Positions 12,890 to 47,108 of a stretch of DNA of 64,000 nt are shown here, piece by piece. The translations under genes were made by a program, and so were the position numbers. The stretch comes from an uncultured delta proteobacterium. Its GTDB lineage: Bacteria; Myxococcota_A; UBA9160; UBA6930. The notes under the pieces were generated by a model. It was not told the origin of the DNA and did not search any database. It saw only the letters and a list, made by a program, of their open reading frames with translations. The DNA lies in assembly GCA_963716275.1 (NCBI GenBank), contig CAVQTC010000002.1, positions 96,897 to 160,896 on the forward strand, written 5' to 3'. Each line of letters begins with the position of its first letter. The stretch's first letter is position 1.

Positions 12890-12905
12890 GCGTTCGACTC
12901 CGGAC

Positions 12906-14411
12906 CTAAGGGGTCGGTGGTGTGCCTTCGGCCAGGAACATTGCCACGAGCTGCATTGCCCGCGGGTCCAAGGGCGTGGTGGGGTGGTCGGCCCCTTTCA
13001 GGATCTCGAAGCGCGCGCCGGGGATCAAGGACGCGAGCTCGACGCCGTAGGCGAGCGGGACGGTGGCGTCCTGGTCGCCGTGGATGACCAGCGTCGGCGT
13101 CCGAATCGACCGCGCGATGTCGCTCACGTCCTCCCGCAGAGAGAAGAACCCCGCCATCTGGGGACCGTCGCCAGAGACGCGGAGGAACTCGCTCATGATG
13201 CTTCGGACGACCGGATCCACGTCCGGGAAGATCGTCGAGGCGAACATCTCCCGAACGGCAGGCTTGTCCCAGCTCGTTCGCACGAGGTCGAGCATGCGGG
13301 TCCACGTCGAGAGGTCGATGAGCTGTTTCCCCGGAACTGAGTCGGCGCCCGCGTTGGTCGCCACGAGGATCAGGTGACCCAGCCTCTCGGGGTTGCCCGC
13401 TGCGTAGGCGATGGCTGCGGGACCGCCAGCGGAGATCGCGTACAGGTTGAAGTGCTCGAGCTTCAGCGCGTCGGCCACCGCCTCGATGTCCCTCACGCGC
13501 GCGTCGAGCGAGAAGTCCGTGACGTCGCGTTGCGACATGCCAAAGCCGCGGCCGTCGTAGCGGATCAGCAGGTTGTGCTCCGAGGTCTGGGCGATCCAAC
13601 CGAAGCGGTCGTACATCGGGCTGAAAGGGCCTCTCTCGAGATGCGTCGCCCAGCCGAGCACGAAGAGCAGCGGCGGTCCAGCGCCGGTCGTCGCATAAGC
13701 GATCCGCACGCCGTCGCTCGCGGTCGCGAAGCCGATCCGCTGCTCGATGGGGTTGCCGAAATAGCGCGGCGCCAGGAGGGCGACCTTGGTCAGGATGGGG
13801 ACACGGAGCTGCGTCCACGCGAGCCAACCGAGCACGGCGATCGCGGCTGCCCCGAGCGTGGCGGTCAAGAGGCGCGAGCGTGCGCGTCGCTTCGCCGGCG
13901 CTTCCGACGCGCTGGTCAGCGCAAACACGTTGAGCGGAATGCTCACGTTCTTCAGCGCCTGCGCGCCGAGCGACGTCGCGCGAATGTGCGAGCGGCTGCG
14001 CACGAGCTGGTAGACGGGCTCGGAGACACAGATGCCGCCGGGCTCGGCGAGGGGGCGGATGCGCGCCGCCACGTTGACGCCCTCGCCGACTACTTCGCCG
14101 CCTCGCCGCGAGACGTCCCCGAGGTGGATGCCGATGCGGATCGCGAGCTCGCGGTCGTCGCGCAGCGCAGCCTGGAGCGCGAGCGCGCAGTCCACGGCGA
14201 GGAGCGCGCTCGGGAAGGTGGCGAGCGCCTCGTCCCCGGTCGAGTCGATCAGCTCCCCCTCGAACTGGCTTGCGAGCGTGCGCACGAGCGTGCGGTGGCG
14301 CTCCCGCACGCGGATCGCCGCCTGCTCGTCGCGCTCCGTGAGGGCCGTGTAGCCCACCACGTCGGTGAACAGGATCGCGACGATGCGACGTTCGTCCGGA
14401 GCCTGGGACAC
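12906..14411 (-). CDS. adenylate/guanylate cyclase - TM - alpha/beta-hydrolase fusion protein (tandem paralog)
   Basis: Same architecture as 11393..12889 and roughly 60% identical by eye (FTDVVGYTALTERDE..., AISAGG). Confidence 0.85.
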   Translation of the reverse strand: MSQAPDERRIVAILFTDVVGYTALTERDEQAAIRVRERHRTLVRTLASQFEGELIDSTGDEALATFPSALLAVDCALALQAALRDDRELAIRIGIHLGDVSRRGGEVVGEGVNVAARIRPLAEPGGICVSEPVYQLVRSRSHIRATSLGAQALKNVSIPLNVFALTSASEAPAKRRARSRLLTATLGAAAIAVLGWLAWTQLRVPILTKVALLAPRYFGNPIEQRIGFATASDGVRIAYATTGAGPPLLFVLGWATHLERGPFSPMYDRFGWIAQTSEHNLLIRYDGRGFGMSQRDVTDFSLDARVRDIEAVADALKLEHFNLYAISAGGPAAIAYAAGNPERLGHLILVATNAGADSVPGKQLIDLSTWTRMLDLVRTSWDKPAVREMFASTIFPDVDPVVRSIMSEFLRVSGDGPQMAGFFSLREDVSDIARSIRTPTLVIHGDQDATVPLAYGVELASLIPGARFEILKGADHPTTPLDPRAMQLVAMFLAEGTPPTP

Positions 14412-14458: not shown

Positions 14459-16805
14459 CTACTGCACGTAGCCCAGGCTCTTGAGCCGCTCGATCTCCTC
14501 GCTGCTCATCGCGGCCTCGCCGGCGGTGATGCTCGGCAGGCGGAGCTTCGCGGTCTCGGCGCGCCAGGCAGAGAGCTGGGCGCGCAAGCGCTCGACGACG
14601 TCGGGATGCGCGGCGGCGACGTCGTGCGCGTCGAGGCGGTCGGAGCGCGCGTCGTAGAGCTCGACGGCCGGCCGGTCCGCGCCCTGCGAGCTGTTCTCGA
14701 TCAGCTTCCAGCCCTCGGCCTCGATGGCGGTGCTCTCGCGGTCCGTCCAGGGCGGAGCACTCAGGTCCATGCGGTGCTCCGAGATCGCTGCGCGCGCCGG
14801 CCAGAGGCCCGGCGCGTCCTTCGCGAGGAGCGGCGCCAGGCTACGGCCCTGGAGCGGCGCTTGCGGGGCGATGCCCGCGAGCTCGAGCAGCGTCGGCATC
14901 ACGTCGATGCTCTCGACGGTCTGGTCGACGCTGCGGCCGGCGGGGATGCGGCCGGGGCTCCAGAAGAGAAGGGGAACGCGCGTCACCTCGCCGTACACGG
15001 TGCGCCCGTGAAACGACGCGCCGTGCTCCTGGAATTCCTCGCCGTGGTCGCTTGCGAACGCGACGAGGGTTCGCTCCGAGAGTCCCAGCTCCCCGATGCG
15101 CTCGAAGACGCGCGCGATCTCCTCGTCCATCGCGCGGATCGAGCCGTCGTACCACGCGCGGTCCACCGCCAGGTAGCCCTCGCGCGGGATGCCCGAGGCG
15201 GCGAGCTCGCTCGCGAGGGGCATCCCGAACGCGCGCATCAACGGGTGCGCGATGAACTTGCGGATGCGCGCCTGCTCCTCGGTGTGACGCGCACACTCAG
15301 CAGCGCTCGCGAAGCGTGTGTCGTAGGGGGCCAACGGGCGGTAGGGGCTGTGCGGGTCCGTGACGTGGAGGTACACGAAGAACGGCACGTCGCGATGTTC
15401 GTCGAGCCAGGGGAGCAAGCGATCGACCTGGGCGCGCGCCGTCTTTGCCGACTCGGCCTCCGGCAGCGAAGCCGACTCGTGGAACTCCTCGAAGCCCTGC
15501 TCGAGGTGCGTGAGCTTGCCGACGAAGAAGTTCGCACTGAGCGAGAGCGTGGCGAAGCCGCCGTCGCGGAAGGCCTCGGCGAGCGTGTGCGCCTCGTCGG
15601 GCAGTCGGTCGGCGAAGCTGCGGATGCGGTGCGAGCTCGGGTAGAGGGACAGCAGGTTCGAGGTCATCGAGACCTTGGTCCAGCCGGCCTGGGAGACGGC
15701 GTCGCGGAAGAGCGTGCCCTCCTGCGCCATGCGGCGCAGCATGGGTGCGGTCTCGCGCTCGTAGCCGTAGGCGTCGAGGTGATCGCTGCGCAGCGTGTCC
15801 GCGAGGATCACGACCACGCCCTGCAGCCCCGGGCGAGGGAGGGCGCTCCGCACCACGGGGGAGCCCCAGAAGCCGATCGTTCCGGGTTGCTCGGCGGCGA
15901 GGGAGAGCGCGAGCTCGACGGGCTGGCCCGCGAAGCGCGCGAGGTCCACGCGCGCGGGCTCCCAGCGAGCGCTCGTCGTGACGGTGCGCTCGAGCAGCTG
16001 GGTCTCCACGCCGCCCGCTCGCGCGAGCACGCGGAAGCGCACGGGCTCCTCCGCGAGCGTGCCGAGCGCGAGGTCGAGCCACGCGTCCGGTGGCACCGTC
16101 GATCGGGAAGCGCAACGTCTCGGGCGAGCGCGCGACGAGCGTCTCGCGGTAGATGTCGGAGAGGCCGTGCCAGCCGGGACCCGAGGGCACGCTCGCCATG
16201 CGCTCCGTCTCGAACACGATGCGCACGGACTCGATCGCGAAGCTCGCGTTGGCGGCGTCGGTCGGCTCCAGATAGATCTCGCGAATGCCGTCGGCCCCGA
16301 TCGGGAACAGCGGCTCGAGCGTGTAGGTGCGGAATGCGTCGCCGGGCACGATCGGGCCGCCGATCGGCCAGAGCAGCGGAGTCCCCGCGAAGGGATCGTC
16401 GGCTCCCGCGCCGGGGGCGCTCCGCAGCTCGAGGGCGACATTCGCGCCCGCCGAGGCCCGCATGCGCAGCTCGATCGCGTGCACAGCGTCGCCGCGCCCG
16501 GCCTCTCGGGGAAGCGAGAGGCGGAGCTTGGGCTCGCCCGTCGTGGAGCGGCCGGTGAGCTTCCCGTCGACGACCCGGACATCGGCGACGCCCGGGCCTG
16601 CGACGAACGCGGGCGGCGGCGCAGCGTCGAAGCGGACCTCGGTTCGCGGAGGCGTCGGGGGCGTGGGCAGCGCGGTGCTCGACGTGCTCCGGGGCAGAAC
16701 GGTCGACCAGTCGAATGGCGCGGGGCGCTCGGGCTTGCGGCGCCGGGCCGCCGCAGCTGTGAGCGAGAGCGCAAGGAGCGCGAGGAGGACGAGCCGAAGG
16801 GTCAC
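14459..16805 (-). CDS. sulfatase (arylsulfatase-like) with a long N-terminal secreted extension; frameshift near 16100
   Basis: Sulfatase core ILADTLRSDHLDAYGY...FFVYLHVTDPHSPY...FASDHGEEF lies in ORF 14459..16774. The N-terminal signal/TM VTLRLVLLALLALSLTAAAA lies in the frame of ORF 15297..17270. The GTG start overlaps the MDR stop. Confidence 0.8.
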
Positions 16806-17890: not shown

Positions 17891-18259
17891 ATGGGTGAGA
17901 TCCACGGCATCTACGAGGTCGCCATCAAGGTGCGAGACCTCGCGCGTGCGGAGGCCTTCTACCGCGACGTGCTGGGCCTGGAGATCGGGCTGCGCGATCC
18001 CCGCCGGCCGTGGATCTTCCTGCGCGCCGGCGCGGGCATGGCGGTGCTGCAGGAGGATTCCGGCCCGTGGCCCCAGCAGCACTTCGCGTTCACGACCGAC
18101 GAGGCGGGGCTCGCGCGCGCCGCGTCGGCCCTTCGCCAGCGCGGCGTCGCGGTGTCGGGCCCCGTGAGCCTCGATTGGATCCCGGCGAAGTCGATCTACT
18201 TCGCGGATCCAGACGGCCACGATCTGGAGATCTGCGCTCCGCTCAGCCGCGGCTCGTGA
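17891..18259 (+). CDS. VOC/glyoxalase-bleomycin-resistance family protein
   Basis: MGEIHGIYEVAIKVRDLARAEAFYRDVLGLEI...FADPDGHDLEI, with GGAGGCGAGC upstream as RBS. Confidence 0.8.
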   Translation: MGEIHGIYEVAIKVRDLARAEAFYRDVLGLEIGLRDPRRPWIFLRAGAGMAVLQEDSGPWPQQHFAFTTDEAGLARAASALRQRGVAVSGPVSLDWIPAKSIYFADPDGHDLEICAPLSRGS

Positions 18260-19665
18260 GCTTCGAGGCGGCGTCCGCGACGACCGTTCCCTCGAAGAAG
18301 CGCGGATTCGTCTCGCCGAACAGCCGCACCGCATTCTCGAACGCGAACGCCCGAAAGCTCGCCTCGTCGACGAGACCGTGCTCGACGAGCTCCCAGGCCT
18401 CCGGGAGCACGTCGCGGAAGTCGGGCACGTCCCAGTGTCCGATGTCCGAGGCGAACATCGCGTTCAGGCGCGTCGCGTAGGGGTTCACGCGCGTCGTCGA
18501 AGGCGAAGGCGTTGGTGGGATCGTCCGCCTCGCAGCCGAAGAAGTACTGGCGCGCGAAGACGTCGCGGACTTGCTCGGGGCGCTCGATGCCCGCCGCCGC
18601 GAACTCGTCGAGCGCAGCGCGGTTCTCGCTCGGGTCGGAGAGGAAGCCGAGCGCCTCGTCGAGCCGCCCCAGCCGCTCCCGGAAGCTCGCAGGCCCGTCC
18701 GCGCTCGATCCAGCGCGCGAGCGCGGCGCGATCGAGATTTGCCGGGTCGTAGTGCGCGATCGCCTCGCGGTTGCGCTTCTCGTAGTGCCCCAGGATGTCG
18801 GCGAAGAGCGTGCACGCCCACGCGACGCCGCCCTCGAGGAAGGCGAAGCGGAGCTCCGGGAAGCGCACCGGCACGCCGCCGAAGAAGAGCGAGCGCGCGA
18901 TCGGCCTCGCTCCCCGCCGCGAAGTTCCCGATGTGGTTCGCCACGTAGTTGGTGGGCGAGTTGCGGCTTCCGAAGCCGATCCCCGTCGAGTGGAAGGTGG
19001 GTGAGACGCCGAGCTCGCAGCAGCGCCGCCAGAGCGGGTCGTAGTCGTGGGCGCTGTCGAGCCCCAGGCCGTCCACCCAGCGCGCTGCGCGCACCCCCTC
19101 GTGCCCGGGCACCGCGCGCAGCACGAGGCCGCCCATCAGGAAGGCGCGCAGGCCGAGCTCCCGCACCGCGTGCTCGAGCTCGGCGATCGCCTCCTCCGGC
19201 GTGAAGGTCGGGATGATGCCCGACCGGGAGCAGGCGGTCCCGATAGGGGCCGTAACACTCGGCGTAGTAGCGGTTGCAGGCGCGCGCGAGCGCGCGGCGC
19301 AGCTCGTCGTCGTCGAGCGCCATCGGCACCAGCCCGAGCGTCGGATAGAGAATCGCGAGATCGATCCCGAGCTCGTCGAGCCGGGAGTAGAGGAGCTTCG
19401 GGAGGGTGGCCGTCGCGCGGTCGAGGGTGTTGCGGGCCGGGAGCCCCCACCAGCCGTGGCGCGCGAGGCCGAGGGAGCGCTTCGTGGCGACGTCGAGACC
19501 GCGCGTCGCGGCGGCCCCGCGCAGCACGCCCTCGAGGCGCTTCCCCACGTCGGCGCCGGCGAGCTCGACCACGAAGTCGCGCACCAGCGGGATGAACTCG
19601 AGCAGGTGGCCGTCGGCGTCGAGGACGGGGTGGCCCAGTCGCGAGCGGATTCCGGCGGCGTCCAC
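18243..19665 (-). CDS. amidohydrolase-2 family (PF04909-like) protein, multiply frameshifted
   Basis: Segments across the minus-strand frames read [56 protein letters not shown], and C-terminal [45 protein letters not shown] precedes the GTG start at 19665. Confidence 0.65.
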
Positions 19666-19725
19666 GGCGCTCCTCCGCCGCGAGTATGGCGTCGGGCTAT
19701 CCTGCGCGCCCTCGGAGGAATCGCA

Positions 19726-20500
19726 ATGAGTCTCGCGGGACGCGTGGCGCTGGTGACGGGCGGGAGTCGGGGGATCGGGCGCGGGATCGCCCTCGCGCTG
19801 GCCGAGGACGGGGCCGACATCGCCGTCAACTACCGGCGCGACGAGACCGCGGCCAAGGAGACCGTGGCCGCCATCGAGAAGCTCGGGCGGCGCGCGCGCG
19901 CGTACCAGGCCTCGATCGACTCCTACGAAGACGACCAGCGCATGGTCGAGGCCGCGGTCGCGCGACTTCGGCTTCGTCGACATCCTCGTGAACAACGCCG
20001 GCATCGCGAGCCGCGGCAACACCGTCGAGAAGACCGATCCCGCCGAGATGGAGCGCGTGGTGCGCACGCACGCCTTCGGCGCCCACCACCTGTGTCAGCT
20101 CGTGCTGCCGAGCATGAAGACGCGGCCGCGCGGCGACATCGTGATGATCTCGAGCGTGGCGACCCTCCACTACGGCGGCGGCGGCGCCCCCTACAACATG
20201 GGCAAGGCTGCCCTCGAGGCGCTGGCGTTCACGCTCGCCAAAGAAGTCCGCCACCGCGGAATACGCGTGAACGTCGTGGCCCCCGGGCTGGTCGAGACGG
20301 AGATGGGGCGCCGGCTCGCCAAGGCGACGCAAGGCGTGCAAGACCTCCGCGAGCTCGACGCAGCGATGCCGTTCGGACGGGTGTGTCAGCCCGAAGACGT
20401 GGCCAACGCGGTGCGCTTCCTGGTCTCGGAGCGCGGCTCCTACATCACCGGCGAGAAGATCAACGTCTACGGCGGCGGGCAAGAAGCGCGGAGGAGCTGA
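19726..20500 (+). CDS. SDR family oxidoreductase, with a frameshift near 19970
   Basis: [34 protein letters not shown]..., then NNAGIASRG...[11 protein letters not shown]...[11 protein letters not shown] in ORF 19988..20500. GGAGGA RBS. Confidence 0.8.
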
Positions 20501-20992: not shown

Positions 20993-22249
20993 CTACCGCA
21001 CCGCCTCGAACTCGATCGGCATGCTCTCGATGCCGAGCACGAAGGTGCCGCGGCGGCGGGGCAGGGGACGCGCCGGATCGGCGAGGCGGATCTCCGGCAT
21101 CCGCGCGAGCAGCTCCTCGAAGAGCACTCTCAGCTCGAGCCGCGCGAGCTGCGCCCCGAGGCAGTGGTGGCGGCCGAAGCCGCCGAAGGCGACGTGATCG
21201 TTCGGCTGGCGCGCGATGTCGAAGTCGAAGGGCCGCTCGAAGACTTGCTCGTCGCGGTTCGCGGAGGGGTAGAGCAGCAGCAGCCGGTCGCCGGCGCGGA
21301 TCTTCTGACCGGCGAGCTCGGTGTCGCGCGTGGCGGTGCGATTCATGTTCTGGATCGGCGTCACCCAGCGCAGCATCTCCTCCACCGCGCTCGGGATCAG
21401 CGTGGGCTCCTTGCGCAGGCGCGCGAGCTGGTCTGGATGGCGCAGCAGCGCCTCGAGCCCTCCCGAGATCACGTGGCGGGTGGTCTCGTCGCCTCCCACG
21501 AGGATCAGCATCGTCTCGAAGATCAGGTCGTTCTCGGTGAGACGCTCTCCCTCGACCTCGGCATTTACGACGAGACTGACGAGGTCCTCTCCGGCGCCAC
21601 CCCGACGCTGCGCGATCAGCGCATTGATGTACGTGGCGTACTCGAGCACGGCAGTGCGGATCTGATCGAGCTGCTCTTCGCCGCCGCCGGCGGCGAACAG
21701 ATCCGACCAGTGCAGCAGCTTCTCGTGGTCGGCCTCGGCGAGGCCCATCAGCTCGCCGATCATGTACATGGGCAGCGGCGTCGCGATCTCGCGCACGAAG
21801 TCGCAGGCGCCGCGCGTCGCCACGGCGTCGATCAGCTCGTTCACCTTGCGCCGCAGGTAGGGCTCGTGGTCCTGGACGCGCCGCTGGGTGAAGCCGGCCG
21901 ACACGATGCGGCGGCGCAGCACGTGCTGCGGGGGATCCATGTTGATCATGCTGGGCACCGAGCTGTCCGGGCGTGAGCCCGAGCCCGAGCAGAAGGTCTC
22001 CCACTCGCGCGCGACGAACATGAGGTCCGCGTGGCGAGTTACGCCCCAGATGCCGGTGGCATCGTCCCAGTAGACCGGCGCGTGCGCCCGCATCCAAGCG
22101 AGCCGCTCGTGCGGGTCGGCGTAGAAGTCGGCCGAGAGCAGGCGGATGTCGGCGCGCGTCGGATGCGCGGCGGCACGCGTCCCCGCGCGGTCGAGCTTCA
22201 CGCGGTATTGATTCTCGTCCTCCGGCCGCTGCGTCTCCGCGCTCGCCAT
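20993..22249 (-). CDS. cytochrome P450 (intact)
   Basis: ORF 20993..22249 with [18 protein letters not shown] and the heme loop [18 protein letters not shown]. Confidence 0.9.
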
Positions 22250-22502
22250 GGATCCTCCGCGTTCCCCCCAGGACCCTTAGCACCTCGTGTCGGGGCTCGG
22301 CTCACGAGCGCGCAACCGAAGGGCCGAGCCCGCGACTCCACAGGGGAAACCGGCAGCGCCGGCTGCCCGGCCGCGTGGCCGACTCCCGCGGGCTGGCGCC
22401 GCACGCAACTCAGTCGTTCACCCGGGCCTGCGTTCTGCCGATTCGACTGCCGTGAACGTGTGTGCATCGCCCCAGGAATGCGCGCGCGCGGGGTGGAGCC
22501 CC

Positions 22503-23502
22503 GTGCGCGCAGCGCGCGCTGCTTTGCTCGCGCTCGCGCTGTCGCTCGCCCCGCAGATTGCGGTCGCGGTCGGCACCGCCGCCGGCACGAGCATCAGCAA
22601 CACCGCCAGCGTCACGGCGGACGTGGGCGGGACCTCGGTCAGCGCGAGCAGCGCCGCGAGCGTGGTCGTGGTCGCCGAGCGGATCGACGTCGACGTGAGC
22701 CTGCTCAGCGTCGGCAACGTGCTGACGACCTCGCCGGCGACAGGGCAGGTCCTCACCTACCGCGTCACCAACACGGGCAACGGCATCGACTCGTTCGCCC
22801 TGACCGGCGACAGCACGCTGGTCGGCGACGACTTCGACCCGGTGCTCGGCAGCATCTACCTCGACGCGAACGCCAACGGCATCTACGACGCCGGCGTCGA
22901 CACGCTCTACCAGCCCGGCGTCAACGACCCGCAGCTCGACGCGAGCGTGCCCACCGCCGACGACGTGGTGGTGTTCGTGCTCAACGACATCCCCGCCGCT
23001 CTCCCGAGCGGCCAGCTCGGCGCGAGCCGGCTGCGCGCGGCCTCACGCACGACGACCGGCGCTCCCGGCAGCGTGCTGGCCGGAGCGGGCGACGGCGGGA
23101 CGGACGCCATCGTCGGGCTCTCGGGCGGCGACGACGAGGACCAGGGCCTCTATCAGGTCTCCACCGTCACCCTCGCAGTCGCCAAGTCCTCGAGCGTGCT
23201 CGACGCCTTCGGCGGCACGCAAGCGATCCCCGGCTCGACGATCACCTACACGCTCGCCGCGACCGTGAGCGGCACGGGCACCGCCGCGCGCCGTGAGCGT
23301 GAGCGACGTGATCCCCGCCAACACGACCTACGTGCCCGGCTCGCTGACGCGCAACGGGTCGCCGCTCACCGACGCGAGCGACGCGCCCACCGACGACGCG
23401 GACTTCAACGTGACCACGCCCAACGGAATCACCGTGGGGCTCGGGAATCTGCCGGCCGGGGGGCCGGCCGAGACGATCACCTTCCAGGTGACGATCAATT
23501 AG
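22503..23502 (+). CDS. secreted DUF11/TIGR01451-type repeat-domain protein A, with a frameshift near 23280
   Basis: Signal peptide (VRAARAALLALALSLAPQIAVA), then GTSISNTASVTADVGG, VLTYRVTNTGNGIDSFALTG, IYLDANANGIYDAGVDT, and C-terminal ...TITFQVTIN in ORF 23293..23502. Confidence 0.6.
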
Positions 23503-23512
23503 GGAGGCATAC

Positions 23513-23998
23513 ATGAAGCGATGGGTCCGACCCTGCGCGGCGCTGGTCGCCGCGCTGCTCGGCGCCGCGGGCGCGGCCGCCGAGACCGGCAAGCTCGAGC
23601 TCCACGCGCGCGCGGAGAAGCGCGTGGCCGTGGCGCTGCCCGACGGCACCACGAGCGAGCAGTTCGTGCCGATCGGGAAAGTCGTGCCGGGCGACGTCGT
23701 CGCCTACACGATCGACGCCCAGAACGTCTCCGGGAAGAACGCGGACGCGGTGGTGATCACCGATCCGATTCCCACTGAGATGGAGTACGTCTCCGCCGAC
23801 CCGGCGGGCGCCGAGCTCCTGTTCTCGGTGGACGGCGGCTTCAAGTTCGACCGCCCCGAGAACCTGTACGTGACGGCACAGGACGGCACGCGCCGCCTCG
23901 CCAGCGCCGGCGACTACACCCACATCCGCTGGGTGTTCGCCGCTCCGTTCGCACCGGCCGAGCGCCGGTCGGTGCGCTTCCTCGCGAAGCTCGAGTAG
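23513..23998 (+). CDS. secreted DUF11 domain protein B (161 aa)
   Basis: Signal peptide MKRWVRPCAALVAALLGAAGAAA. DUF11-like GDVVAYTIDAQNVSGKNADAVVITDPIPTEMEYV. GGGAGG RBS. Confidence 0.7.
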   Translation: MKRWVRPCAALVAALLGAAGAAAETGKLELHARAEKRVAVALPDGTTSEQFVPIGKVVPGDVVAYTIDAQNVSGKNADAVVITDPIPTEMEYVSADPAGAELLFSVDGGFKFDRPENLYVTAQDGTRRLASAGDYTHIRWVFAAPFAPAERRSVRFLAKLE

Positions 23999-24037: not shown

Positions 24038-25156
24038 ATGCATCGGGAGAACGTGATGCGCGGTGTCGCCAGGGTGGTCCTGGCGTCGCTCGCGCTCGGA
24101 ATTGCAGGCACGCAGGGTGCCAGCGCGGCCGGCACGGATGCCGGCACCGTGGTCAGCAACTCGGCCACGGTCAACTACAACGTCGGGGCGACGGCGCAAG
24201 CGCCGGTCAACTCGCTGGCGGTGACCTTCGTGGTCGACGATCGCGTCGACCTCACGGTGGTCGAGCTGTCGGGCGGCTACACGGCCGTGGCGGCGAACGG
24301 CACCAACGAGGTGCTCACCTACACCGTCACGAACACCGGCAACGGCATCCACGACTTCCTGCTGACGCGGGCGGACAACGCCACCGATCCTTTCGGTGGC
24401 ACGGACAACTTCAACGCCACGCCGGTCAGCATCATCGTGGATAGCAACGCGAACAACGTCTACGACGCCGGGACCGACACGGCGACGTACATCGACGAGC
24501 TCGGCAACGGCCAGGCTCGCGCGGTGTTCGTGCTGAGCAACATCGGCGCGCAGGCGAGCGGCGACATCTCGGCCGTCACGCTGACCGCGCAGGTCGCGCA
24601 GGGCGGCACGGCCGGCGTCCAGGGCGCGGCGATCGCCACGGACGACGCCGCGGTCGCGGACACGGCGGGCACGGTGCAGATCGTGTTCGCGGACGCCACG
24701 GGCGACACCGACGCGCTGCACGACGGTCGCCACAGCGACACCGACGCCTACCTGGTCGGCGCCGCCACGGTGACGGTGACGAAGACCTCGGCCGTGATCC
24801 TCGACCCGATCAACGGTGCGCTGAACCCGAAGGCGATTCCGGGCGCGACGGTGGAGTACACCGTCACGGTCTCGAACACGGCGGGTTCCTCGGCGACGGC
24901 CACCAACGTGGTCATCACCGACAGCCTCGCCGCCGAGATCACTGCAGGCAGCGTGGCCTTCGGGACGAACGGCTACGGCGCTGCGCAGGGCATCCAGGTC
25001 ACGGCGCCGAACATCAACGGCGGGGTGGCCACCAACCTGAGCAACTTGGCCGATGCGGACCAGGGCGACTTCTCGGCGAACGTGGTGACCGTCAACGGCA
25101 TCACGCTGGCGCCGAACCAGAGCGCCACGGTCAAGTTCCAGGTCGTGATCCAGTAA
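24038..25156 (+). CDS. secreted DUF11/TIGR01451-type repeat-domain protein C (paralog of A)
   Basis: AAGGAGAA RBS. Signal peptide, then GTVVSNSATVNYNVG, VLTYTVTNTGNGIHDFLLT, IIVDSNANNVYDAGTDT, VEYTVTVSNTAGSSATATNVVITD. Confidence 0.7.
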   Translation: MHRENVMRGVARVVLASLALGIAGTQGASAAGTDAGTVVSNSATVNYNVGATAQAPVNSLAVTFVVDDRVDLTVVELSGGYTAVAANGTNEVLTYTVTNTGNGIHDFLLTRADNATDPFGGTDNFNATPVSIIVDSNANNVYDAGTDTATYIDELGNGQARAVFVLSNIGAQASGDISAVTLTAQVAQGGTAGVQGAAIATDDAAVADTAGTVQIVFADATGDTDALHDGRHSDTDAYLVGAATVTVTKTSAVILDPINGALNPKAIPGATVEYTVTVSNTAGSSATATNVVITDSLAAEITAGSVAFGTNGYGAAQGIQVTAPNINGGVATNLSNLADADQGDFSANVVTVNGITLAPNQSATVKFQVVIQ

Positions 25157-25161
25157 CACCC

Positions 25162-28100
25162 GTGAGCGCACGGCTCACCCTCTCGATGCACGGTCCCCGA
25201 CGGGCCCGCGCGGAGTCCTCGCGACTCCGCGCGCGGCCCGGCCGGGGCTCTCCGTCTTCGCGCTGGGCGAGCCTCCTCTGCGCGTGGCTGGTGGCGGTGC
25301 TCGCGGCCGCCGCCAGCTACGCGCAGACGCCGCCTGGCACGGTGATCACCAACACCGCGCAGGCGGTCTTCACGCCGCCCGGCGGCGTTCCGACCAACGT
25401 CGCGTCCAACGCGGACACGATCACCACGGGGGGCCAGCGCACGCCCTCCGCGACCCAGCTCTTCCACTACGCGCCGGGCAGCGCCGGCGCGATCTCGACC
25501 GCCGTGGGCGCCGGCATGTGCAGCACGAGCGGCGCGGCGGCCGGGCCCTTCGTCGCGACGCCCAATCCCACGAACCTCTCGGGCGGCGCGATCAACCTCG
25601 GCAACCCCGTCGAGCTCCTCGCCGGCGGCGCCTTCCATCAGACCGAGGCGCTGTTCGTGCGCGTGCGCGATCCGGATCAGAATCTCGATCCGCTCAGCGC
25701 CGAGAACGTGCTCGTCTCGCTGGTCTCGGTCACGACCGGCGACCAGGAGTGGATTCGCGTCGCCGAGACCGGCGCGAACACCGGCGAGTTCGTCGGCTAC
25801 CTGATGCTCGGGCCGCCGCCGGCGGTCTCGGGCGATTGCCGCCTCTCCGTCGTCGCGGGCGAGACGTTCCGCGCCGACTACACGGATCCGGCCGACGGCG
25901 CCGACAGCTCGGCGAACGCTGCGCTCGTGGACCCGCTCGGCATCGTCTTCGACAGCCAGACGGGAGCGCCCATCGACGGCGCGAGCGTCACGCTGATCGA
26001 CTCCGCGAGCGGGCTCCCCGCCACGGTGTTCGGCGACGACGGCGTCTCGAGCTTCCCTGCCACGGTGACCTCGGGCGGCACCGCCAGCGACTCGGGCGGG
26101 ACGCTCTACACCTTCGCCCCGGGCCAGTACCGCTTCCCCTTCGTCGCGCCCGGGCAGCTATCGCCTCCAGATCGTCCCGCCGCCCGGCTACGGCTTCCCG
26201 TCGATCGTGCCGGACGTCGCGCTCCAGCTCCTGCCGGGCGCGCCCTTCGCGCTCGGCCCCGGCTCGCGCGGCAACGACTTCGTCGTGCCGCTCGGCCCCA
26301 TCTTCCAGGTGGACGTGCCCCTCGATGCCGCGGGCACCGGCGCGGGCCTGACGCTCAGCAAGCGCGCGAATCGCGCCACCGCCGGCATCGGCCAGTTCGT
26401 CCAGTACGTGCTCGAGCTCTCGGCGCCGGGCGGCAGCGCGGGCAACCCGCTCGTCCTCGACGACCGGCTGCCGCGCGGCTTCCGCTACGAGGAGGGCTCG
26501 CTGCGCCTCGATGGCCAACCGGCGCCGGAGCCCACCATCAGCAACAAGGGTCGGCGCCTCACGGTGCCGCTGCCCGCACTCGCGCCGGGCGGGCGCGTCG
26601 AGATCCGCTACGTGACGCGCATCGGCTCGAGCGCGACCGGCGGCGAGGCGCGCAACGACGCGATCGTGCGCGGCGGCGTGATCGCCTCGAACCCCGCGCG
26701 CGCGAGCGTCCAGGTGATGGCGGATCTCATCACTCAGCGCGCCACCCTGATGGGCCGCGTGATGGAGGGCAGCTGCGACTCGCCGGCCCTCGACGAGCAC
26801 GCGGGGGTCGCGGGCGTGCGCGTATTCCTCGAGGACGGCACCTACACGGTCACCGACGACCAGGGCCGCTTCCACTTCCCGCTGGTGTCGCCCGCGACGC
26901 ACGTCGTCCAGCTCGACACCCAGACGCTGCCCGACGGCCTCTACGCGATGCCCTGCAGCAGCAGCGACTTCGCGGATCGACCCTACTCCCAGTTCGTGGA
27001 GCCCCAGGCGGGAGCGCTCTGGCGGACCGACTTCTTCGTCGGCCGCATGGCGAGCTCGCGCGGCCTCCACCAGCGCCTCACGGTCACGCCTGGCGAGGGC
27101 AAGCAGACGCTCGAGCTGCGCGTCGAGGCGGGCGGCGCTGCGCTCGAGGGGTTGGCCGCCACCCTGATGCTTCCGGACGGCGTCACGCCGCTGCCCGGTA
27201 CGCTGGTCGTCGACGGCCCCGGCGCGGCGCTCGATGCGACCAGCCCCACGCCGCTCGTGCGCGCGCCCACGCTCTCGCCGGGCCAGGCGGTGACGCTGCG
27301 GCTCGACGTGGCGGGCGCGCCGACGCAGCAAGTGAGCTCCTTCGCGCGCGCAAAGCGCGAAGGCGGCGGCGGCGTCCAGACGCCCGTGGCGACCGCCACG
27401 CTCGCGGAGGCCCACACCTTCCTGCAGAGCGCGAGCTGGGAGAACGAGCCCGCCGCGGAGAAGCTCGCCGAGGAGGCGCCGCCCGAGGCCGCCTTCGACG
27501 GGGCCTGGCTCGCGCAGGCCGCCCCGGCCACGCGCTGGCTCTACCCGGACGCCGGCGCCATCCCGAAGATCCCGTCCGTCAATCTCGGCGTCCAGCACGA
27601 CCCGGCGCTGCGCGTGCGGCTCTTCCGCAACGGCAAGCTCGTCGACCCGCTGAACTTCGAGGGCACCGAGCGGAACCCCGCGAAGACGGTCGCGGTGAGC
27701 CGCTGGCGCGGCGTCGATCTCGAGGAAGGGCCCAATACCTTCAGCGCCGAGCTGCTCGACGAGGGCGGTGGGCTGCGCGAGCGCCTCCAATACATGATCC
27801 ACTACTCGGGCCCGCCGGTGCGCGGCGAGCTGATGCCGAGCCTGTCGCACCTGGTGGCCGACGGCCGCGAGACGCCCGTGATCGCGGTGCGGCTCTTCGA
27901 CCGCTGGGGCCGGCCGGTGCGCGAGGGCATCAGCGGCCCGCTGCGCGTCGCGCCGCCGCACCAGGCGAAGGAGACGGTCGAGGCCGCGCGCGAGCGCCAG
28001 CTCGCGATGCCGGATCTCGGCGCCACGAGCTTCGTGGTCGGCCGCGGCGGCATCGCGCGCATCGAGCTCGAGCCCACCACGAACGTCGGGCGCTTCGCGG

Positions 28101-30646
28101 TCACGCTCCAGCTCGCGCACGACGCGCAGCAGGAGATCGATGGTTGGCTCTCGCCGGGCGAGCGCGAGTTCACCCTGGTCGCGCTCGGCACCGGGACGCG
28201 CGGCTTCGGGACGGGGCCCGCGAACCTCTCGGGCGGCGCGAGCGGAGCGCCCGAAGGAAGTGGCTCGGACGGCCGCGCGGCGTTCTTCGCCAAGGGCACG
28301 CTGGGCGATGGCTGGACCCTCACCGGCGCCTACGACACCGACGCCAAGCAGACGCAGCCGGGCGATCGCCTGGGCCGCCACCTGGACCCCGACGAGCACT
28401 ACATGCTCTACGGCGACGGCACCCAGGAGGGCTACGAGGCCCCGACCTCGGACGGCGTCTACCTGAAGGCCGAGCGCGAGCGCTTCTACGCGCTCTACGG
28501 CGACTACGAGACGGGCCTCAGCGAGACCGAGCTCGCGCGCTACAGCCGCGTGCTGACCGGCGTCAAGACCGAGTACTTCGGCGACCGCTTGCGCTGGAAC
28601 GGCTTCGGCACCGACTCCGGCCAGCAGTACGTGCGCGACGAGCTGCGCGGCAACGGCACGAGCGGCCTGTATCGGCTCTCGCGCGTGGGCGCGATCCCGA
28701 ACAGCGTGCGCGTGCGCCTGGAGACCCGCGATCGCTTCCGGCCCGACCGCGTGCTGCGCAGCGAGCCGCTCATGCTCGACATCGACTACGACATCGACTA
28801 CGCCGGCGGGGCGCTCCACTTCCGCAAGCCGATCCCCGGCCGCGACGAGCTGCTGAACCCGATCTTCATCGTGATCGAGTACGAGGTGGACGGCGCGGGC
28901 TCCTACTCGGGCGGTGGCCGCGTGGCGGGCCGGTTCTTCCGGGGCGCGCTCGAGCTCGGCGCGAGCGGCATCCACGAAGGCCGCGGCGACTTCGCGGGCG
29001 ACCTGGTGGGTCTCGACGCGACCTACGACGTCGACGAGGCGACCAGCCTCCATGCCGAGTTCGCCGGCTCGGACAACGACGATTTCGGCGGCAGCGCGCG
29101 CGGCGCAGGCTGGCTGCTCTCGGCCGAGCACCGCACCGAGGCGCTCGAGCTGGCCGCCTACGCCCGCGAGCAGGAGGCCCAGTTCGGCCTGGGCCAGCTC
29201 TCGGCGGTGGATCAGGGCATGCGCCGCTACGGCGTGGACGGGCTCTACCATCTGAACGAGCGCTGGAGCGTGAAGGGCAGCGCGTTCCGCGACGAGCGGC
29301 TCGGCGCCCCCGACGAGCGGACGCTGGCGGAGACGGTGCTCGAGTACGACGAAGCCCAGCGCGGCGCTCATCTGGGCGCGCGCTATGTGCGCGACTCGGC
29401 GCCCCTCGACTCCGCGAACGCCGCGCAGCTTCTGCTGGGCGGCCACTACGCTTTCCTCGACAACCGGCTCACGCTGCGCGCGGCGAGCGAACTGGGCTTC
29501 GGCTCGGAGGGCGCGCACGGCGACTACGCCAACCGCGTCGCCGGCGGCGCCGACTGGCGGCTCACCGATTGGCTCACGCTGTTCGGCGAGCACGAGCTCA
29601 CCTTCGGCGACACGCACGAGGGCCAGGACACGCGCGCCGGCGCAACCGTCACGCCCTGGGAGGGCGGCCAGATCTCCACGACAGTGGGGCAGAACGCGCG
29701 CGAGTACGGCCCGCGCACCTACGCGAACCTGGGCCTCTCGCAGCACTGGAATCTGTTCCAGAGCTGGGGCTTCGACTTCATGGTGGACCGCTCCCAGACG
29801 CTCTCGGGAGGCGGCAGCGAGCCGCTCGATCCGGACCTGGGCTTCGACTCCGGGCCGCCCGCCGACGACTACACGGCGGTGTCGGTCGGCGCGGCGTTCA
29901 CGAAGGACGACACGGCCGTGCAGAGCCGGGCGGAGCTGCGCCTCGGCGACCTCGAGGACCAGTGGAACGTGCTGCTCGGCGTGCTCCGCGAGCACGAGCG
30001 CACCTCCTACGCGGGCCGCCTCGAGCTCTGGAACAAGGACGGCAGCGGCCCGACCTCGAGCCAGGAGGACCTGTACGCGCTGCGCTTCTCGCTCGTGCAC
30101 CGGCCGCTCGACACGCACTGGATCGTGCTCGAGCAGACCGACTTCGAGCTGGGCCGCAACGAGGGCGGCGGCCTCGACAGCCGCGAGCGCAGCTTCGTGA
30201 ACCACTTGAAGGTCAACTACCTCTACACGCAGCAGAGCCAGGTCTCGCTGCAGTACTCGGCGAAATGGGTGGGCGACACGATCGACGGGCGCGACTACCG
30301 CACGCTCGGCCACTTGTTCGGCGTCGAGGCGCGCCACGACCTGACCTCGCGCTGGGACGTCGGCCTGCACGCGCGCTTCCGCCAGCTGACGGGCGGCGAC
30401 GCCGGCGACCAGAACCTCTCGCTCGGCCTCTCGATCGGCCGCGTGCTCTACAAGAACGTGTGGGCGAGCGTCGGGTACAACTTCTCGGGCTTCCAGGACG
30501 ACCAGTTCTCGAAGAGCGACTACACGGCCGAGGGTCCGTTCCTGCGCATGCGCGTGAAGGTCGACCAGGACGCGGTGCGCGACCTGCTCCAGTGGCCGCC
30601 GCGCATGACGCGCCGCAACGACGTCGGCATCGCCCAGCAGCCTTAG
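25162..30646 (+). CDS. giant (about 1830 aa) secreted protein: N-terminal DUF11 plus CnaB/SdrD-B-like domains, C-terminal ~1000 aa predicted outer-membrane beta-barrel; frameshift near 26160
   Basis: Signal LCAWLVAVLAAAASYA. GTVITNTAQAVFTPPGG. IDGASVTLIDSASG...GQYRFPFVAPGSYRLQIVPPPGY. GQFVQYVLELSAPGG...LVLDDRLPRGFRY. VRVFLEDGTYTVTDDQGRFHF. The C-terminus is full of alternating amphipathic strands (LDIDYDIDYAGGALHF, IFIVIEYEVDGAG, LKVNYLYTQQSQVSLQYSAKW, WASVGYNFSGF). Confidence 0.7.
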
Positions 30647-30667
30647 GCGGCGCTCGCTCCTCTGGTC

Positions 30668-30764
30668 CGCGTCAACTTGGGGACGCTGGTTGAATCAGTC
30701 GCCGCCAGAGTCCTACCAGCGTCCGCGAGTTGACTGATTCAACCAGCGTCCCCAAGTTGACGCG
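30668..30764. promoter_or_regulatory. perfect 33-bp inverted repeat (CGCGTCAACTTGGGGACGCTGGTTGAATCAGTC ...31 nt... GACTGATTCAACCAGCGTCCCCAAGTTGACGCG) ending exactly at the ATG of the downstream SDR gene
   Basis: Seen directly: the arms at 30668-30700 and 30732-30764 are exact reverse complements. There is no U-tract, and the repeat covers the entire 5' UTR and RBS region of the gene at 30765. Confidence 0.5.
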
Positions 30765-34337: not shown

Positions 34338-37300
34338 CTACCAGGTGTCGACGCAGGGGCGCTTCTTCCCCGTGCGCGGCGCGGGCGGCGGCGAGGCCAA
34401 GAGCGCGCGCGTGATCCAGCGCCGCGTACTCGGCGGGGTCGATCACGTCGTCGATCTCGAAGTGCGAGGCGGTGCTCACGGCCTTGCCGTGGTCGTACAT
34501 GCGCTTCACCATCTGGTCGAAGAGCGCCTTGCGCTTCTCGGGATCGCTCTCCGCGGCGAGCTCGTTGCGATAGCCGAGCTTGACGGCGCCCTCGAGGCCC
34601 ATGCCGCCGAACTCGCCGGTGGGCCACGCGATGGTGAAGACCGGCGCCTTGAAGCTGCCGCCCGCCATCGCCTGGGCGCCGAGCCCGTAGCCCTTGCGCA
34701 GCACGATCGTCACGAACGGGACGCGTGAGGCTTGCCGCCGATCACGAACAGCCGCGAGGCGTGGCGCACGAGCGCGGTCTTCTCGACCTCGGGGCCGACC
34801 ATGATGCCGGGCGTGTCGCACAGGAACACGACCGGGATGTCGAAGGCGTCGCAGAGCTGCAGGAAGCGCGCGGCCTTGTCGGCGGCCGTCGCTGTCGATC
34901 GCGCCCGCCAGATGCGTCGGGTTGTTGGCGACGATGCCGATCGGTCGGCCCTCGACGCGCGCCAGCGCGGTGATCATGCCGAGCCCGAAGCCGCGCCGGA
35001 GCTCGAGCACGCTCCCGGTGTCGGCGAGCGTCGCGATCACGCTGCGCACGTCGTAGATGCGCAGGCGGTTCTCGGGGATCGCGCGGCGCAGCAGGCGCTG
35101 GTCGGCGCACTGACCAGCTGCGCGAGCGGACCCTGGAAGTAGGCGAGGTACTGCTTCGCGACGGCGACCGCCTCGGCCTCGTCGCGCACCGGCACGTCGA
35201 CCACGCCGTTGCGCACCTGGACGTGCGAGCGGGCCGACCTCCTCCGGGCGGAAGACGCCGAGCCCGCCGCCCTCGATCATCGCGGGCCCGCCCATGCCGA
35301 TGTTCGAGCGCTCGGTGGCGATCACGACGTCGCAGCAGCCGAGAAGCGCGGCGTTGCCCGCGAAGCAGCAGCCGCGACGTGATCGCCGACCAGCGGCACC
35401 AGGCCCGAGAGCTGGCCCCGAAGTACTGGAAGGCGAGGCAGTCGAGGCCGGCGACGCCGACGCCGTCGGTGTCGCCGGGCCGCCCGCCGCCGCCCTCGGT
35501 GAAGAACACCACCGGCAGGCGCCATGCGCTCGGCGAGCTCGAACAGGCGGTCCTTCTTGCGATGGTTCTGCTGGCCCTGGGTGCCGGCGAGCACCGTGTA
35601 GTCGTAGGACATCACGACGCAGCGCGAGCGCTCGGCGGCGAACAGCGCGCCGTTCACGCTGCCGATGCCGGCGATCAGGCCGTCGGCGGGCGTGCGCGCG
35701 ATCAGGTCCTCGAGCGTGCGGCGCCGGCGCTGCGCGGCGATCACGAGCGGCCCGTACTCGACGAAGGTCCCCGGATCGCAGAGGTCGTCGACGTTCTCGC
35801 GCGCGGTGCGCTGGCCGGTCTTGCGCCGCCGCGCCACCGCCTCGGGCCGGCTCGCGTCGAGCGTCGATCGCGTGGCGCTCGAGCGACCTCCGCGAGGTCG
35901 GGGCGGATGCGGGCGAGGTCCGCTCCTCGGCGCGCGCGGCGCCTGCGGCCTCGACCTCGGCCTCCTCGAGGAAGACGAGCGGGTGCCCCTCGAAGACGGT
36001 GTCGCCGCGCGCGACGGCGACGCCCTGCACGATCCCGCTCGCGGCGGCCGCGATCACGTGCTCCATCTTCATCGCCTCCATCACGAGCAGCGGCTGGCCG
36101 GCGGCGACCCGCGTCGCCCGCGCTCACGTCCACCGACACGATCGTGCCCTGCAGCGGCGCGCGCACCGCGAGCGTGCCCTCGGGCACCGCGACGTCGGCG
36201 GACGCCAGGATCGCCATTTCGGCGGGCTCCGCCGCCGCCGACTCGGCGGCGGCCGCGCCCTTCCCGTAGTCGAGCACGGCGAGCGGATCGCTGCTGGCGA
36301 GGCGCGCACCAGCGAGCCGCGGCCTTCGCTCGGCTTCAGCTCGCTCGCGAAGAAGAGCTGCGGATGCTCGCTTGCCGCGAGCAGCTCGGCCGCGTGCTCG
36401 TCGACGAAGCGGGTGTGCACCCGCCCCGCCGCGAAGTCGGGTGGCGCGAGCAGCGCCTGCAGGAAGGGCGCGTTCGTGGCCACGCCCTCGATGCGCAACT
36501 CGCAGAGCGCGCGGTACGCGCGCGCCAGCGCGTCCGCGAAGCGTCGGGCGAGTGCACGATCACCTTCGCGAGCAGCGAGTCGAAGCGCGGATTCGTGGTG
36601 TAGCCCGCGTAGCCGCGCGTGTCGATGCGCACGCCCGGGCCCGAGGGCGGCTCGAAGGCGGTGAGCGTCCCCCCCGTCGGCCGCGCGCTCCCGTCCGCTC
36701 CCATCTTCTCGGTGTTGACGCGCAGCTGGATCGCGAAGCCGCGCGGCGACGGGATCTGCGCCTGCTCGAGGCCGAGCTGCGCCAGGCTCTGCCCTGCGCG
36801 AGCTCGAGCTGCGCCTGCACGAGGTCGAGCCCGGTCACCGCCTCGGTGACGGTGTGCTCGACCTGGAGGCGCGCGTTGGCCTCGATGAAGGCGAAGCGGC
36901 GCCCCTGGTCGGCGTCGACCAGGAACTCGACGGTGCCGAGCCCGCTGTAGGACGCGGCCCGGCCGAGCGCCAGCGCGGCCGCGAGAAGCTCTTCGCGCAC
37001 GCCGGGATCGAGCGCGGGGCTCGGCGCGATCTCGACGATCTTCTGGTTGCGGCGCTGGAGCGTGCACTCGCGCTCGCAGAGGTGGGCGACCTCGCCGGCC
37101 GTCGCCCACGATCTGCACCTCGATGTGGCGCGCGCGCGGCAGGAGCTCCTCGACGTAGACGTCCGCGACGCCGAAGGCCGCCTTCGCCTCGGAGCGGCAG
37201 CGCGCGTAGGCCTCCTCGAGCTCCTCGGCGCGCGCGACGACGCGCATGCCGCGCCCGCCGCCGCCCGCGATCGCCTTGATCATCACGACGGCGCCGGGCG

Positions 37301-46125: not shown

Positions 46126-46155
46126 CCGTAAGATGCGCGCACTTCGGAGGTTTCC

Positions 46156-47092: not shown

Positions 47093-47108
47093 GGGACCGC
47101 GCCGCGCG

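Follow-up and report, generated by a model that had tools for sequence, protein, structure and literature searches.

Gene D, the last gene of a same-strand cluster of four (A, B, C and D), lies in a stretch of 64,000 nucleotides from an uncultured delta proteobacterium (GenBank assembly GCA_963716275.1, contig CAVQTC010000002.1, positions 96,897 to 160,896), hereafter called the window. An earlier note, made from the sequence without database searches, had described D as one polypeptide that joins pilin-like immunoglobulin-like (Ig-like) domains to a very large C-terminal barrel of the outer-membrane type, and this architecture is borne out by Foldseek matches of its stalk to pilins and by AlphaFold2 (AF2) models. 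The C-terminal 795 amino acids (aa) are predicted to form a very wide outer-membrane barrel of ~38 strands, with a conserved 70-aa insert. The conserved A-B-C-D operon is the strongest clue to function. We propose, with some hesitation, that D could well be the outer-membrane component of a self-contained A-B-C-D module making a cell-surface fiber or stalk from CnaA-like (DUF11/CLIPPER) subunits.

The N-terminal stalk of D

The N-terminal 950 aa of D form a string of Ig-like domains of the Gram-positive pilin type (residue numbers refer to the 1827-aa protein reconstructed below). The AF2 model of residues 1-747, with a predicted local distance difference test score (pLDDT) of 82.4, shows a signal helix and then β domains only, and the tripeptide SYA, followed by Q, stands directly after the modeled signal-peptide helix 31-53. 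When this model was searched with Foldseek, the best matches were the sortase pilins BcpA, SpaD, RrgB, LrpA, EbpB and SpaA (E 3e-11 to 5e-8), which makes the wording "pilin-like repeat domains" in the earlier note a fair one. The order of parts given there, a signal peptide and then DUF11 and CnaB-like modules, agrees with the modeled helix and with Pfam matches to DUF11, SdrD_B and CarboxypepD_reg.

PF01345, recently given the name CLIPPER, was established as a domain of the CnaA-like isopeptide type (PMC12617251). The DUF11 match of D to this family scores 20.8 bits, under the Pfam cut-off of 24.6, and most homologues have this family on record; SdrD_B is also recorded for D homologues. The only PDB entry matched by a profile of D was the CLIPPER structure 9IFR, at E 2.6e-5 and on the DUF11 part only. 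Lys is found in 'TLSK', Asp in 'LDDRLP' and Asn in 'ARNDAIV'. K400 aligns with the Lys of 9IFR (chain position 10) and 'LDD' with 'LND', and the Asn follows in 'ARNDAIV'. Judged by its sequence, the internal domain at residues 396-504 is a CnaA-like isopeptide domain of the DUF11/CLIPPER kind with its Lys, Asp and Asn, the bond itself being predicted.

The predicted C-terminal barrel

D residues 628-1827 (model positions 1-1200) were modeled by AF2 from a 56-sequence alignment, with a pLDDT of 81.2 and a predicted template modeling score of 0.67; model positions are used in this section. The pair of Ig-like domains at 164-254 and 260-371 contains many nearly invariant columns, and a low-confidence Gly/Ser linker follows the third Ig-like sandwich of the model. 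The barrel is modeled as 38 long strands running from 377 to 1171 (~795 aa), a count that is best quoted as ~38 (36-38). If 'RDWILVGLAEGT' (377-383) is taken as strand 1, the long loops (27, 40, 13, 70, 15, 21 and 15 aa) all follow odd strands and the turns after even strands are all 2-6 aa, which in the model is the canonical arrangement of outer-membrane proteins (OMPs), in which the extracellular loops are long and the periplasmic turns short. An alternative count from 411 gives 37 strands, and the long loops would then be periplasmic. Hydrophobicity alternates in most barrel strands across the alignment. The last strand reads 'GPFLRMRVKV' here and 'GPFxxFRxKF' in the family consensus; since a tail of ~27 aa follows it, the β-signal is not terminal. 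The predicted barrel shows the general features of an OMP, namely an N-terminal signal peptide and C-terminal antiparallel amphipathic strands.

Few stretches of the family are as conserved as the insert. It contains an invariant cluster formed by G536, G538, G541, Y543, L545, R564 and F593, and the first five of these residues are invariant in 116/116 sequences. At 28649-28700 of the window (D residues 1163-1180), an RGD tripeptide is part of the family consensus of the insert ('DEIRGDGTSGLYRLS'), where the window reads 'DELRGNGTSGLYRLS'.

No Pfam or NCBIfam model matched the last ~1200 aa of D, neither collection has a model for the D-family barrel, and a phmmer search of the barrel against all PDB chains returned no match. 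Partial matches of the C-terminal region, all at 5-14% identity, were to LptD (13.6), MtrB (13.0), FimD (12.6), PapC (11.7) and SprA (11.6 over 498 residues). Foldseek of the C-terminal model adds SlpA and the ApoB100 β-belt at TM-scores ≤0.2, and sub-threshold OMP_b-brl matches were observed in the barrel region of two D homologues. D resembles ushers, autotransporters, Omp85/two-partner secretion proteins, LptD, TonB-dependent receptors and SprA only as a generic barrel.

The earlier note had named a confident structural match to a soluble repeat family as the result that would speak against a barrel, and no such family matched the C-terminal region. Other parts of its description need revision. 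The barrel had been put at about 1000 aa, but AF2 gives ~795 aa, the rest being the two conserved Ig-like domains and the linker. It had also been placed in the size class of LptD, ushers and BamA; LptD has 26 strands, ushers 24, BamA 16 and SprA 36, and the predicted ~38 strands exceed all of these, nominally so for SprA. Its separation from the autotransporter translocators stands, with no PF03797 match in D and ~795 aa and ~38 strands against 12. No POTRA domain was found in D, as had been said, whereas the accompanying claim that D lacks a usher-plug element is not safe, given the conserved 70-aa domain inserted in the barrel.

The A-B-C-D module and its truncated DUF11 domains

Signal peptides and DUF11-type repeats are found in A, B, C and D alike. 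By tblastn, almost all loci with sufficient upstream DNA keep the A-B-C-D order, and A homologues lie upstream of D in most loci. When the open reading frames (ORFs) of 80 loci were clustered all against all, the D family was present at 79 loci, the A/C family at 57 loci (128 ORFs) and the B family at 51 loci; besides these three families, no conserved chaperone, sortase, peptidase or regulator was found at the 80 loci. Literature searches returned no description of the A-B-C-D operon, and their yield was the CLIPPER paper and computational reports of 38- and 40-strand barrels.

In tens of loci, the mature A, C and D proteins open, right behind the signal peptide, with the motif (A)GTxAGTxIxNxAxVxYxVGG...SN...FxV, hereafter the hairpin. 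Among 51 A/C proteins, Gly and Asn of the hairpin are each conserved in 51/51, Thr in 50/51 and Ala in 49/51; in D homologues, conservation of N64 and A66 reaches at least 90%. With hhalign, the A/C C-terminal domain aligns to columns 4-98 of the complete DUF11 domain of D (Prob 97-98%, E 6e-11 to 5e-13), and for gene C the match (Prob 97%) runs to the C-terminus of the protein. The A/C match stops at the C-terminus ~30 columns short, so that two strands are missing, including the Asn-bearing one. The end point is shared by 47/51 A/C proteins, and the truncated domain has Lys in 49/51 and Asp in 51/51. That A and C end in an incomplete DUF11 domain, which keeps the isopeptide Lys and Asp and is devoid of the last two strands, is well supported by these alignments.

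We sought whether the hairpin resembles the missing strands. The internal DUF11 domain of D contains 'GGEARNDAIV..GG..SNPARASVQV', and 'GTDAVNNVVN' of 9IFR can be set by eye against 'GTDAGTVVSN' of C. Moving the hairpin behind the C-terminus raised the hhalign score from 74.8 to 80.3 (reversed/shuffled controls, 73.9 and 75.6). Appending it raised Pfam scores by 1.4-5.7 bits, including that of the B DUF11 match from 30.0 to 35.7 bits, with no gain from a reversed control. These comparisons hint that the hairpin may correspond to the missing DUF11 strands of A/C. Because the only recognizable DUF11 domain of D is complete, no acceptor for the D hairpin is seen in cis. B and the larger secreted proteins encoded upstream at other loci (600-940 aa) have no hairpin and share a C-terminal strand of the form '...F.V.V' that ends at the stop.

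Such a larger protein is encoded upstream of A in many related loci (L001, at 5279-7039, and L005, L006, L013, L015, L024, L026, L028, L038, L054 and L079), and none is encoded in the window. Its N-terminal part is variable and without the GTxIxNxA hairpin, and its C-terminus, '...PSFxLxFRVRVx' before the stop, is like the end of B. The larger protein may be a tip adhesin. B itself has weak matches, below cut-off, to Chlam_OMP6 (the cysteine-rich OmcB family of Chlamydia; E 9e-4) and to TIGR04089 (a SipW-type signal-peptide domain; E 1.5e-3).

Proposed assembly and alternatives

In the proposed fiber, the N-terminal hairpin of one subunit would complete the truncated domain of the previous one by donor-strand complementation. 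The isopeptide triad of the CnaA-like domain would be completed only upon assembly, and a Lys-Asn isopeptide bond may lock each subunit join. The proteins would then fall into three classes: A and C would be both donor and acceptor, B and the large upstream proteins acceptor-like only, and D donor only. The result would be a polar chain with B or the larger tip proteins at the far end, A/C as the shaft and D at the base as terminator and anchor. The D barrel, probably very wide because ~38 strands are predicted, would be the channel by which folded Ig domains traverse the outer membrane and would hold the fiber to the cell, the fusion of the barrel to a donor-bearing stalk serving as the tie. 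The operon context points to a system for building and anchoring a fiber, one whose combination of parts would be new. A stronger version is on the unlikely side: that A-B-C-D is an undescribed diderm pilus pathway without sortase or chaperone, in which split CLIPPER subunits are joined by intermolecular isopeptide bonds in the manner of a natural SpyTag/SpyCatcher, and the fiber passes through the D lumen and is covalently tied to the D stalk via the D hairpin.

Several observations weigh against the proposed fiber. The gains obtained when the hairpin stands in for the missing strands are small, 2-6 bits or score units, and of the chimeric sequences searched against Pfam and the PDB one had no match at all. 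A permuted A/C profile searched against the PDB found 9IFR at E=0.025 only, in an alignment that stops short of the hairpin; its FimH matches (E 0.05-0.2) were weak and taken as chance. The hhalign match of B covers only its first half, and truncation of B is at most putative. Completion could also occur in cis, A/C being circularly permuted DUF11 proteins with an inserted middle domain. The AF2 monomer places the D hairpin at pLDDT ~80, which suggests cis packing. Closure, shear, lumen size, insert position and the exact strand count (36-38) are provisional. Finally, a sister subfamily of D has a peptidoglycan-binding OmpA domain in its stalk, which argues for a periplasmic and not a surface-exposed location of at least the barrel-proximal stalk.

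The last observation leads to a different view of D, as a structural envelope protein whose large barrel is tethered to peptidoglycan or periplasm by a periplasmic Ig-like stalk, as in SlpA or OmpA-type connectors, with A, B and C as periplasmic or inner-leaflet lattice partners like the DUF11-type OmcB of Chlamydia. The OmpA domain of the sister subfamily stands just before the conserved core, many homologues carry the name "OmpA family protein", the usual OMP topology puts the N-terminus of an even-stranded barrel in the periplasm, the Foldseek matches include SlpA (30 strands, with a stalk that binds peptidoglycan), and B has its weak match to Chlam_OMP6 (E 9e-4). A tether of this kind nevertheless leaves the hairpin common to A, C and D and the truncated DUF11 domain of A/C unexplained, as well as the ~38-strand lumen and the strongly conserved insert; furthermore, Pfam found no OmpA domain in the D of the window, and CnaA/CnaB-like stalk domains of the pilin type are typically surface-exposed (PMC12617251). 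We regard this explanation as doubtful.

Still less probable is that D acts alone, as a giant adhesin of autotransporter type that exports its own Ig-like passenger through its own barrel, A, B and C being independent proteins that are not polymerized onto it. The order of signal peptide, passenger and C-terminal barrel is that of type Va, the passenger is similar to adhesin and pilin stalks, and N-terminal lengths vary widely (proteins of 1600-3000 aa) with the barrel C-terminal. On the other hand, ~38 strands are predicted rather than 12, Pfam detected no autotransporter family in D and no linker helix is seen, an OmpA domain inside the "passenger" of the sister subfamily is hard to square with full export, and the strict co-occurrence with A/C and B, together with the common hairpin, points to joint function.

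Comparison with known systems

Chaperone-usher pili (PapC/FimD; FimH/PapG) share several features with the module. The predicted D barrel would be wide enough for folded Ig subunits, and its gene comes last after genes for small secreted Ig-fold subunits. In both cases a small β domain is inserted early in the barrel sequence. A/C combine an incomplete Ig-like domain with an N-terminal extension, and the putative tip proteins are without this extension; the tip adhesins of chaperone-usher pili likewise have no donor strand. The differences are considerable. Ushers have 24 strands, and D ~38. The usher plug, on the periplasmic side, follows strand 6 and precedes strand 7, whereas the D insert follows strand 7, probably on the extracellular side. 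Homology of the insert to the usher plug was considered and dropped, as counting the conserved strand 377-383 puts the insert after strand 7, on the long-loop side. D has no usher N-terminal or C-terminal domains, no Usher or PapC_N/C match was obtained in Pfam at E up to 0.1, and no conserved chaperone neighbor was found at the 80 loci. The subunits are CnaA-like DUF11 proteins with an isopeptide triad, the donor would be a two-strand hairpin, and D itself bears a 950-aa pilin-like stalk with a donor motif.

SprA (Sov) is the 36-strand translocon in type IX secretion systems (T9SS) and acts alongside PorV, Plug and further T9SS parts. D has no detectable sequence similarity to it (PDB chains; Pfam, NCBIfam), and the structural match is generic (TM-score ≤0.14). 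SprA is limited to Bacteroidota-Chlorobiota-Fibrobacterota, in contrast to the D family of Myxococcota, Desulfobacterota, Gammaproteobacteria and Nitrospirota, and no T9SS partners are present among the conserved D neighbors. D also differs from the other known barrel classes. It contains neither the POTRA domains nor the 16-strand barrel (PF01103/PF03865) of Omp85 and two-partner secretion proteins (BamA, TamA, FhaC), nor the LptD_N/OstA jellyroll and 26-strand barrel (PF04453) that with LptE define LptD. The plug (PF07715), 22-strand barrel (PF00593) and TonB box of TonB-dependent receptors are likewise absent from D, and so is the 24-strand barrel of fimbrial ushers (PF00577) with its plug between strands 6 and 7.

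Barrels of comparable size have been predicted computationally. Solan et al. (2021, PMC8346858) predicted a superfamily of 38- and 40-strand barrels from contact maps, and predictions for Deinococcus radiodurans include three barrels of 38 strands (PMC9388160). These are single-chain barrels above any solved size and with no assigned function, and 38 is also the count for D, the likeness being one of strand count and description only. As far as they were read, the two reports describe neither a pilin-like stalk nor an A-B-C-D operon nor split DUF11 subunits.

The sortase pilins (BcpA, SpaA/SpaD, RrgB) and the CLIPPER fibrillar adhesins (9IFR; PMC12617251) consist of Ig domains of the CnaA/CnaB type, as do the D stalk and the subunits, and Lys, Asp and Asn of the D DUF11 domain are at positions aligning with the solved CLIPPER domain. 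Unlike in these systems, the host is diderm, no sortase, LPXTG or pilin motif lies nearby, D is anchored by an integral outer-membrane barrel instead of the cell wall, and in A/C the triad would be divided, one part in the N-terminal hairpin and the other in the C-terminal domain. In archaeal threads, archaeal bundling pili and TasA, an N-terminal strand is donated into the next incomplete β-sandwich, and isopeptide bonds have been reported for the threads (PMC9715654, PMC9245690). This usher-less, head-to-tail chemistry is the closest analogue of the proposed A/C assembly, polymerization being a proposal here. These filaments belong to monoderm or archaeal envelopes without an outer-membrane barrel, and the searches gave no significant sequence match to them, the only trace being the weak TIGR04089 match of B (E 1.5e-3).

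Autotransporters of type Va and type Ve (intimin/invasin) also combine a barrel and Ig-like (Big_1-like) adhesin domains in one chain, with the passenger before the barrel in type Va. Their barrels have 12 strands, however, and that of D is ~3 times larger and has obligatory partner genes; no Autotransporter (PF03797), IAT_beta or LysM domain was found in D by Pfam.

Distribution and significance of the D family

D is a member of a big, unnamed and uncharacterized family. The C-terminal 998 aa of D found 429 proteins among the scored candidates, mostly of 1650-1740 aa and with the same Pfam set. A scan of one genome per species found at least 586 genomes with a D relative. These relatives occur in Myxococcota, Desulfobacterales, Desulfuromonadales/Geobacter, Steroidobacteraceae, Thiohalophilus, Nitrospirota and Lentisphaeria, in genomes from soils, sediments and groundwater, and the nearest (61-64% identity) are in Myxococcota and "Deltaproteobacteria" metagenome-assembled genomes. 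An exhaustive phmmer search with the barrel only gave 2949 cluster representatives at 50% identity, 1069 of them at E ≤1e-30, and the barrel is almost always C-terminal, in proteins of 1600-3000 aa. The fusion had been called unusual in the earlier note; the stalk-barrel architecture is so common among homologues that it is the norm of a large family and not a peculiarity of the window. In the sister subfamily (P0013, P0040, P0096, P0102), the OmpA domain (PF00691) follows the CarboxypepD_reg/DUF11 domains and precedes the conserved core of Ig domains plus barrel, roughly at the position of the D Ig sandwich 628-758.

If the model is right, the family would contain the largest single-chain membrane barrel, with ~38 strands against 36 in SprA, and the folding of so many strands (38) by BAM would call for an explanation. 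SprA was still called the largest known barrel in a 2026 survey (10.64898/2026.03.07.710327). Uncurated entries of the AlphaFold database are capped at 1,280 residues (10.64898/2026.03.07.710327), and the D family was overlooked in part because its members exceed this length. If the fiber model is true, the module would represent a Gram-negative route to an isopeptide-stabilized, anchored fiber without sortase or chaperone, a new class of pilus or adhesin, and perhaps also a natural means of split-domain ligation for use in biotechnology. At least one cultured strain, Povalibacter uvarum DSM 26723 (Steroidobacteraceae), carries a D relative, which opens the family to experiment.

Reading frames and the break in gene D

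Since GC content of the window is 72%, long ORFs are present in several frames, and the real frames were picked by third-position GC (GC3). Between 25250 and ~26000, frame 1 has a GC3 of 0.92-0.97; between ~26150 and 30500, frame 2 has one of 0.93-1.00. Past 'FVAPGQ', the frame-1 translation becomes Arg/Ala/Pro-rich nonsense, and frame 2 reads on as 'SYRLQIVPPPGYGFPS...'. Frame 1 (25162-26154) and frame 2 (26156-30646), when stitched, give the 1827-aa protein. The stitched junction 'GQYRFPFVAPGSYRLQIVPPPGYGFPS' corresponds to the consensus of 43 full-length homologues, 'GxYRFPxVxPGxYRLxVxPPxGYxxPS', at exact spacing and with 0 residues gained or lost, which points to one extra base in the GCGCCCGGGC run. 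The first segment is contiguous with the remainder of the D protein in homologues (tblastn), and the N- and C-terminal parts are uninterrupted at ~70 loci. The public annotation, P0001, begins at GTG 26207 and has 1479 aa; as gene D is not one ORF in the window, this call is truncated by the frameshift, a probable one-base error. Gene A contains a shift of its own in a GCCGCGCGCC run, within 23270-23300, where frame 0 reads '...TLAATVSGTGTA' and then nonsense and frame 1 goes on as 'VSVSDVIPANTTYVPGS...ETITFQVTIN' to the stop.

In the operon, both shifts fall in G/C runs, with no loss of coding signal before or after them. The break in D is most simply, and very probably, a one-base sequencing or assembly indel and not pseudogenization, and the same applies to A. 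The earlier note had likewise suspected an indel error inside a CnaB-like domain; the SdrD_B/prealbumin-like match indeed spans the junction, homologues are contiguous there, and gene A and other genes of the window also switch frame. A decaying pseudogene, with both frameshifts real and no full-length D made in the present genome, would account for two independent shifts in one operon (D at 26149-26155, A near 23286-23292) and for a public annotation that covers the C-terminal 1479 aa only. It is quite improbable, as GC3 remains at 0.93-1.00 without in-frame stops before or after the shift, both shifts fall in G/C runs, several unrelated genes of the same 64 kb switch frame as in an indel-prone assembly, and D is otherwise well conserved (58-64% identity to intact homologues). 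A programmed frameshift in D was ruled out because homologues are uninterrupted at the same position.

The frame-1 ORF at 25162-30693 (1843 aa) and the antisense ORF at 25988-30370 (minus strand) were rejected as artefacts of the 72% GC content. Antisense ORFs over gene D in 71 related loci cluster as "conserved", but GC3 marks them as non-coding reflections of the sense frame with its high GC. Frame switches without a stop in the old frame were also observed at 44000-47100 (plus strand), 18200-20100 (minus strand), 35800-36800 and 16050-16140, and Amidohydro_2 matches 18243-19829 (minus strand) at profile positions 90-156 only, in one frame. The assembly appears to be rich in indels, as suggested by roughly one event per 6-8 kb.

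Features and neighboring genes

Table 1. Coordinates in the window of genes A to D and of the features of D
Feature	Position	Strand	Basis or remark
Gene A, secreted two-part DUF11-type subunit; N-terminal hairpin, truncated C-terminal DUF11	22503..23502	+	Own frameshift near 23286-23292
Gene B, small secreted DUF11-like protein, 161 aa, no N-terminal hairpin	23513..23998	+	Pfam DUF11, 29.6 bits; TIGR01451, 38.8 bits
Gene C, paralogue of A; N-terminal hairpin, truncated C-terminal DUF11	24038..25156	+	TIGR01451, 33.4 bits
Gene D segment 1, residues 1-331	25162..26154	+	Frame 1; GC3, translation; start GTG 25162 or ATG 25186
Signal peptide, Sec-type, residues 31-54, '...WLVAVLAAAASYA'	25252..25323	+	AF2 helix 31-53; read from sequence
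Conserved hairpin, mature N-terminus, 'TPPGTVITNTAQAVF..GG....SN', residues 56-92	25327..25437	+	Strands 61-88 modeled, pLDDT ~80
SdrD_B/prealbumin-like (CnaB-like) core with the frameshift	26083..26197	+	Pfam SdrD_B at 308-345, 23.3 bits, below cut-off
Frameshift site, probable extra base in GCGCCCGGGC (+1 shift)	26146..26155	+	Sequence; consensus spacing of stitched peptide
Gene D segment 2, residues 332-1827 and stop codon	26156..30646	+	Frame 2; GC3; P0001 identical from residue 349
Complete DUF11/CLIPPER (CnaA-like) domain, residues 396-504	26348..26674	+	PF01345; aligns to solved CLIPPER 9IFR
CarboxypepD_reg (prealbumin-like) core, residues 547-583	26801..26911	+	PF13620, 42.6 bits, above the 32.3 cut-off; holds 'VRVFLEDGTYTVTDDQGRFHF'
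Ig-like β-sandwich, residues 628-758	27044..27436	+	AF2 strands at model 7-131, pLDDT ~90
Two family-conserved Ig-like domains, the second Big_1-like ('LVADGRETPVIAVRL...') by eye	27533..28156	+	AF2 164-254 and 260-371, pLDDT ~90
Predicted outer-membrane β-barrel, ~38 strands, residues 1004-1798	28172..30556	+	AF2 model
Inserted 70-aa β domain between barrel strands 7 and 8, 'GNGTSGLYRLS...DYDIDY...'	28649..28858	+	AF2 536-605, five short strands, pLDDT 80-85

Downstream of D, the SDR and SPFH genes of the window lie outside the module. The divergent neighbor of the operon, at 20993-22276 on the minus strand, reads like a cytochrome P450 with a heme-binding motif near its C-terminus. Farther away, also on the minus strand, 10169-11293 and 11393-12997 encode a Rieske/ring-hydroxylating dioxygenase alpha subunit beside a cyclase-hydrolase protein, which combines a guanylate/adenylate cyclase catalytic domain and an alpha/beta-hydrolase fold in an unusual pairing.

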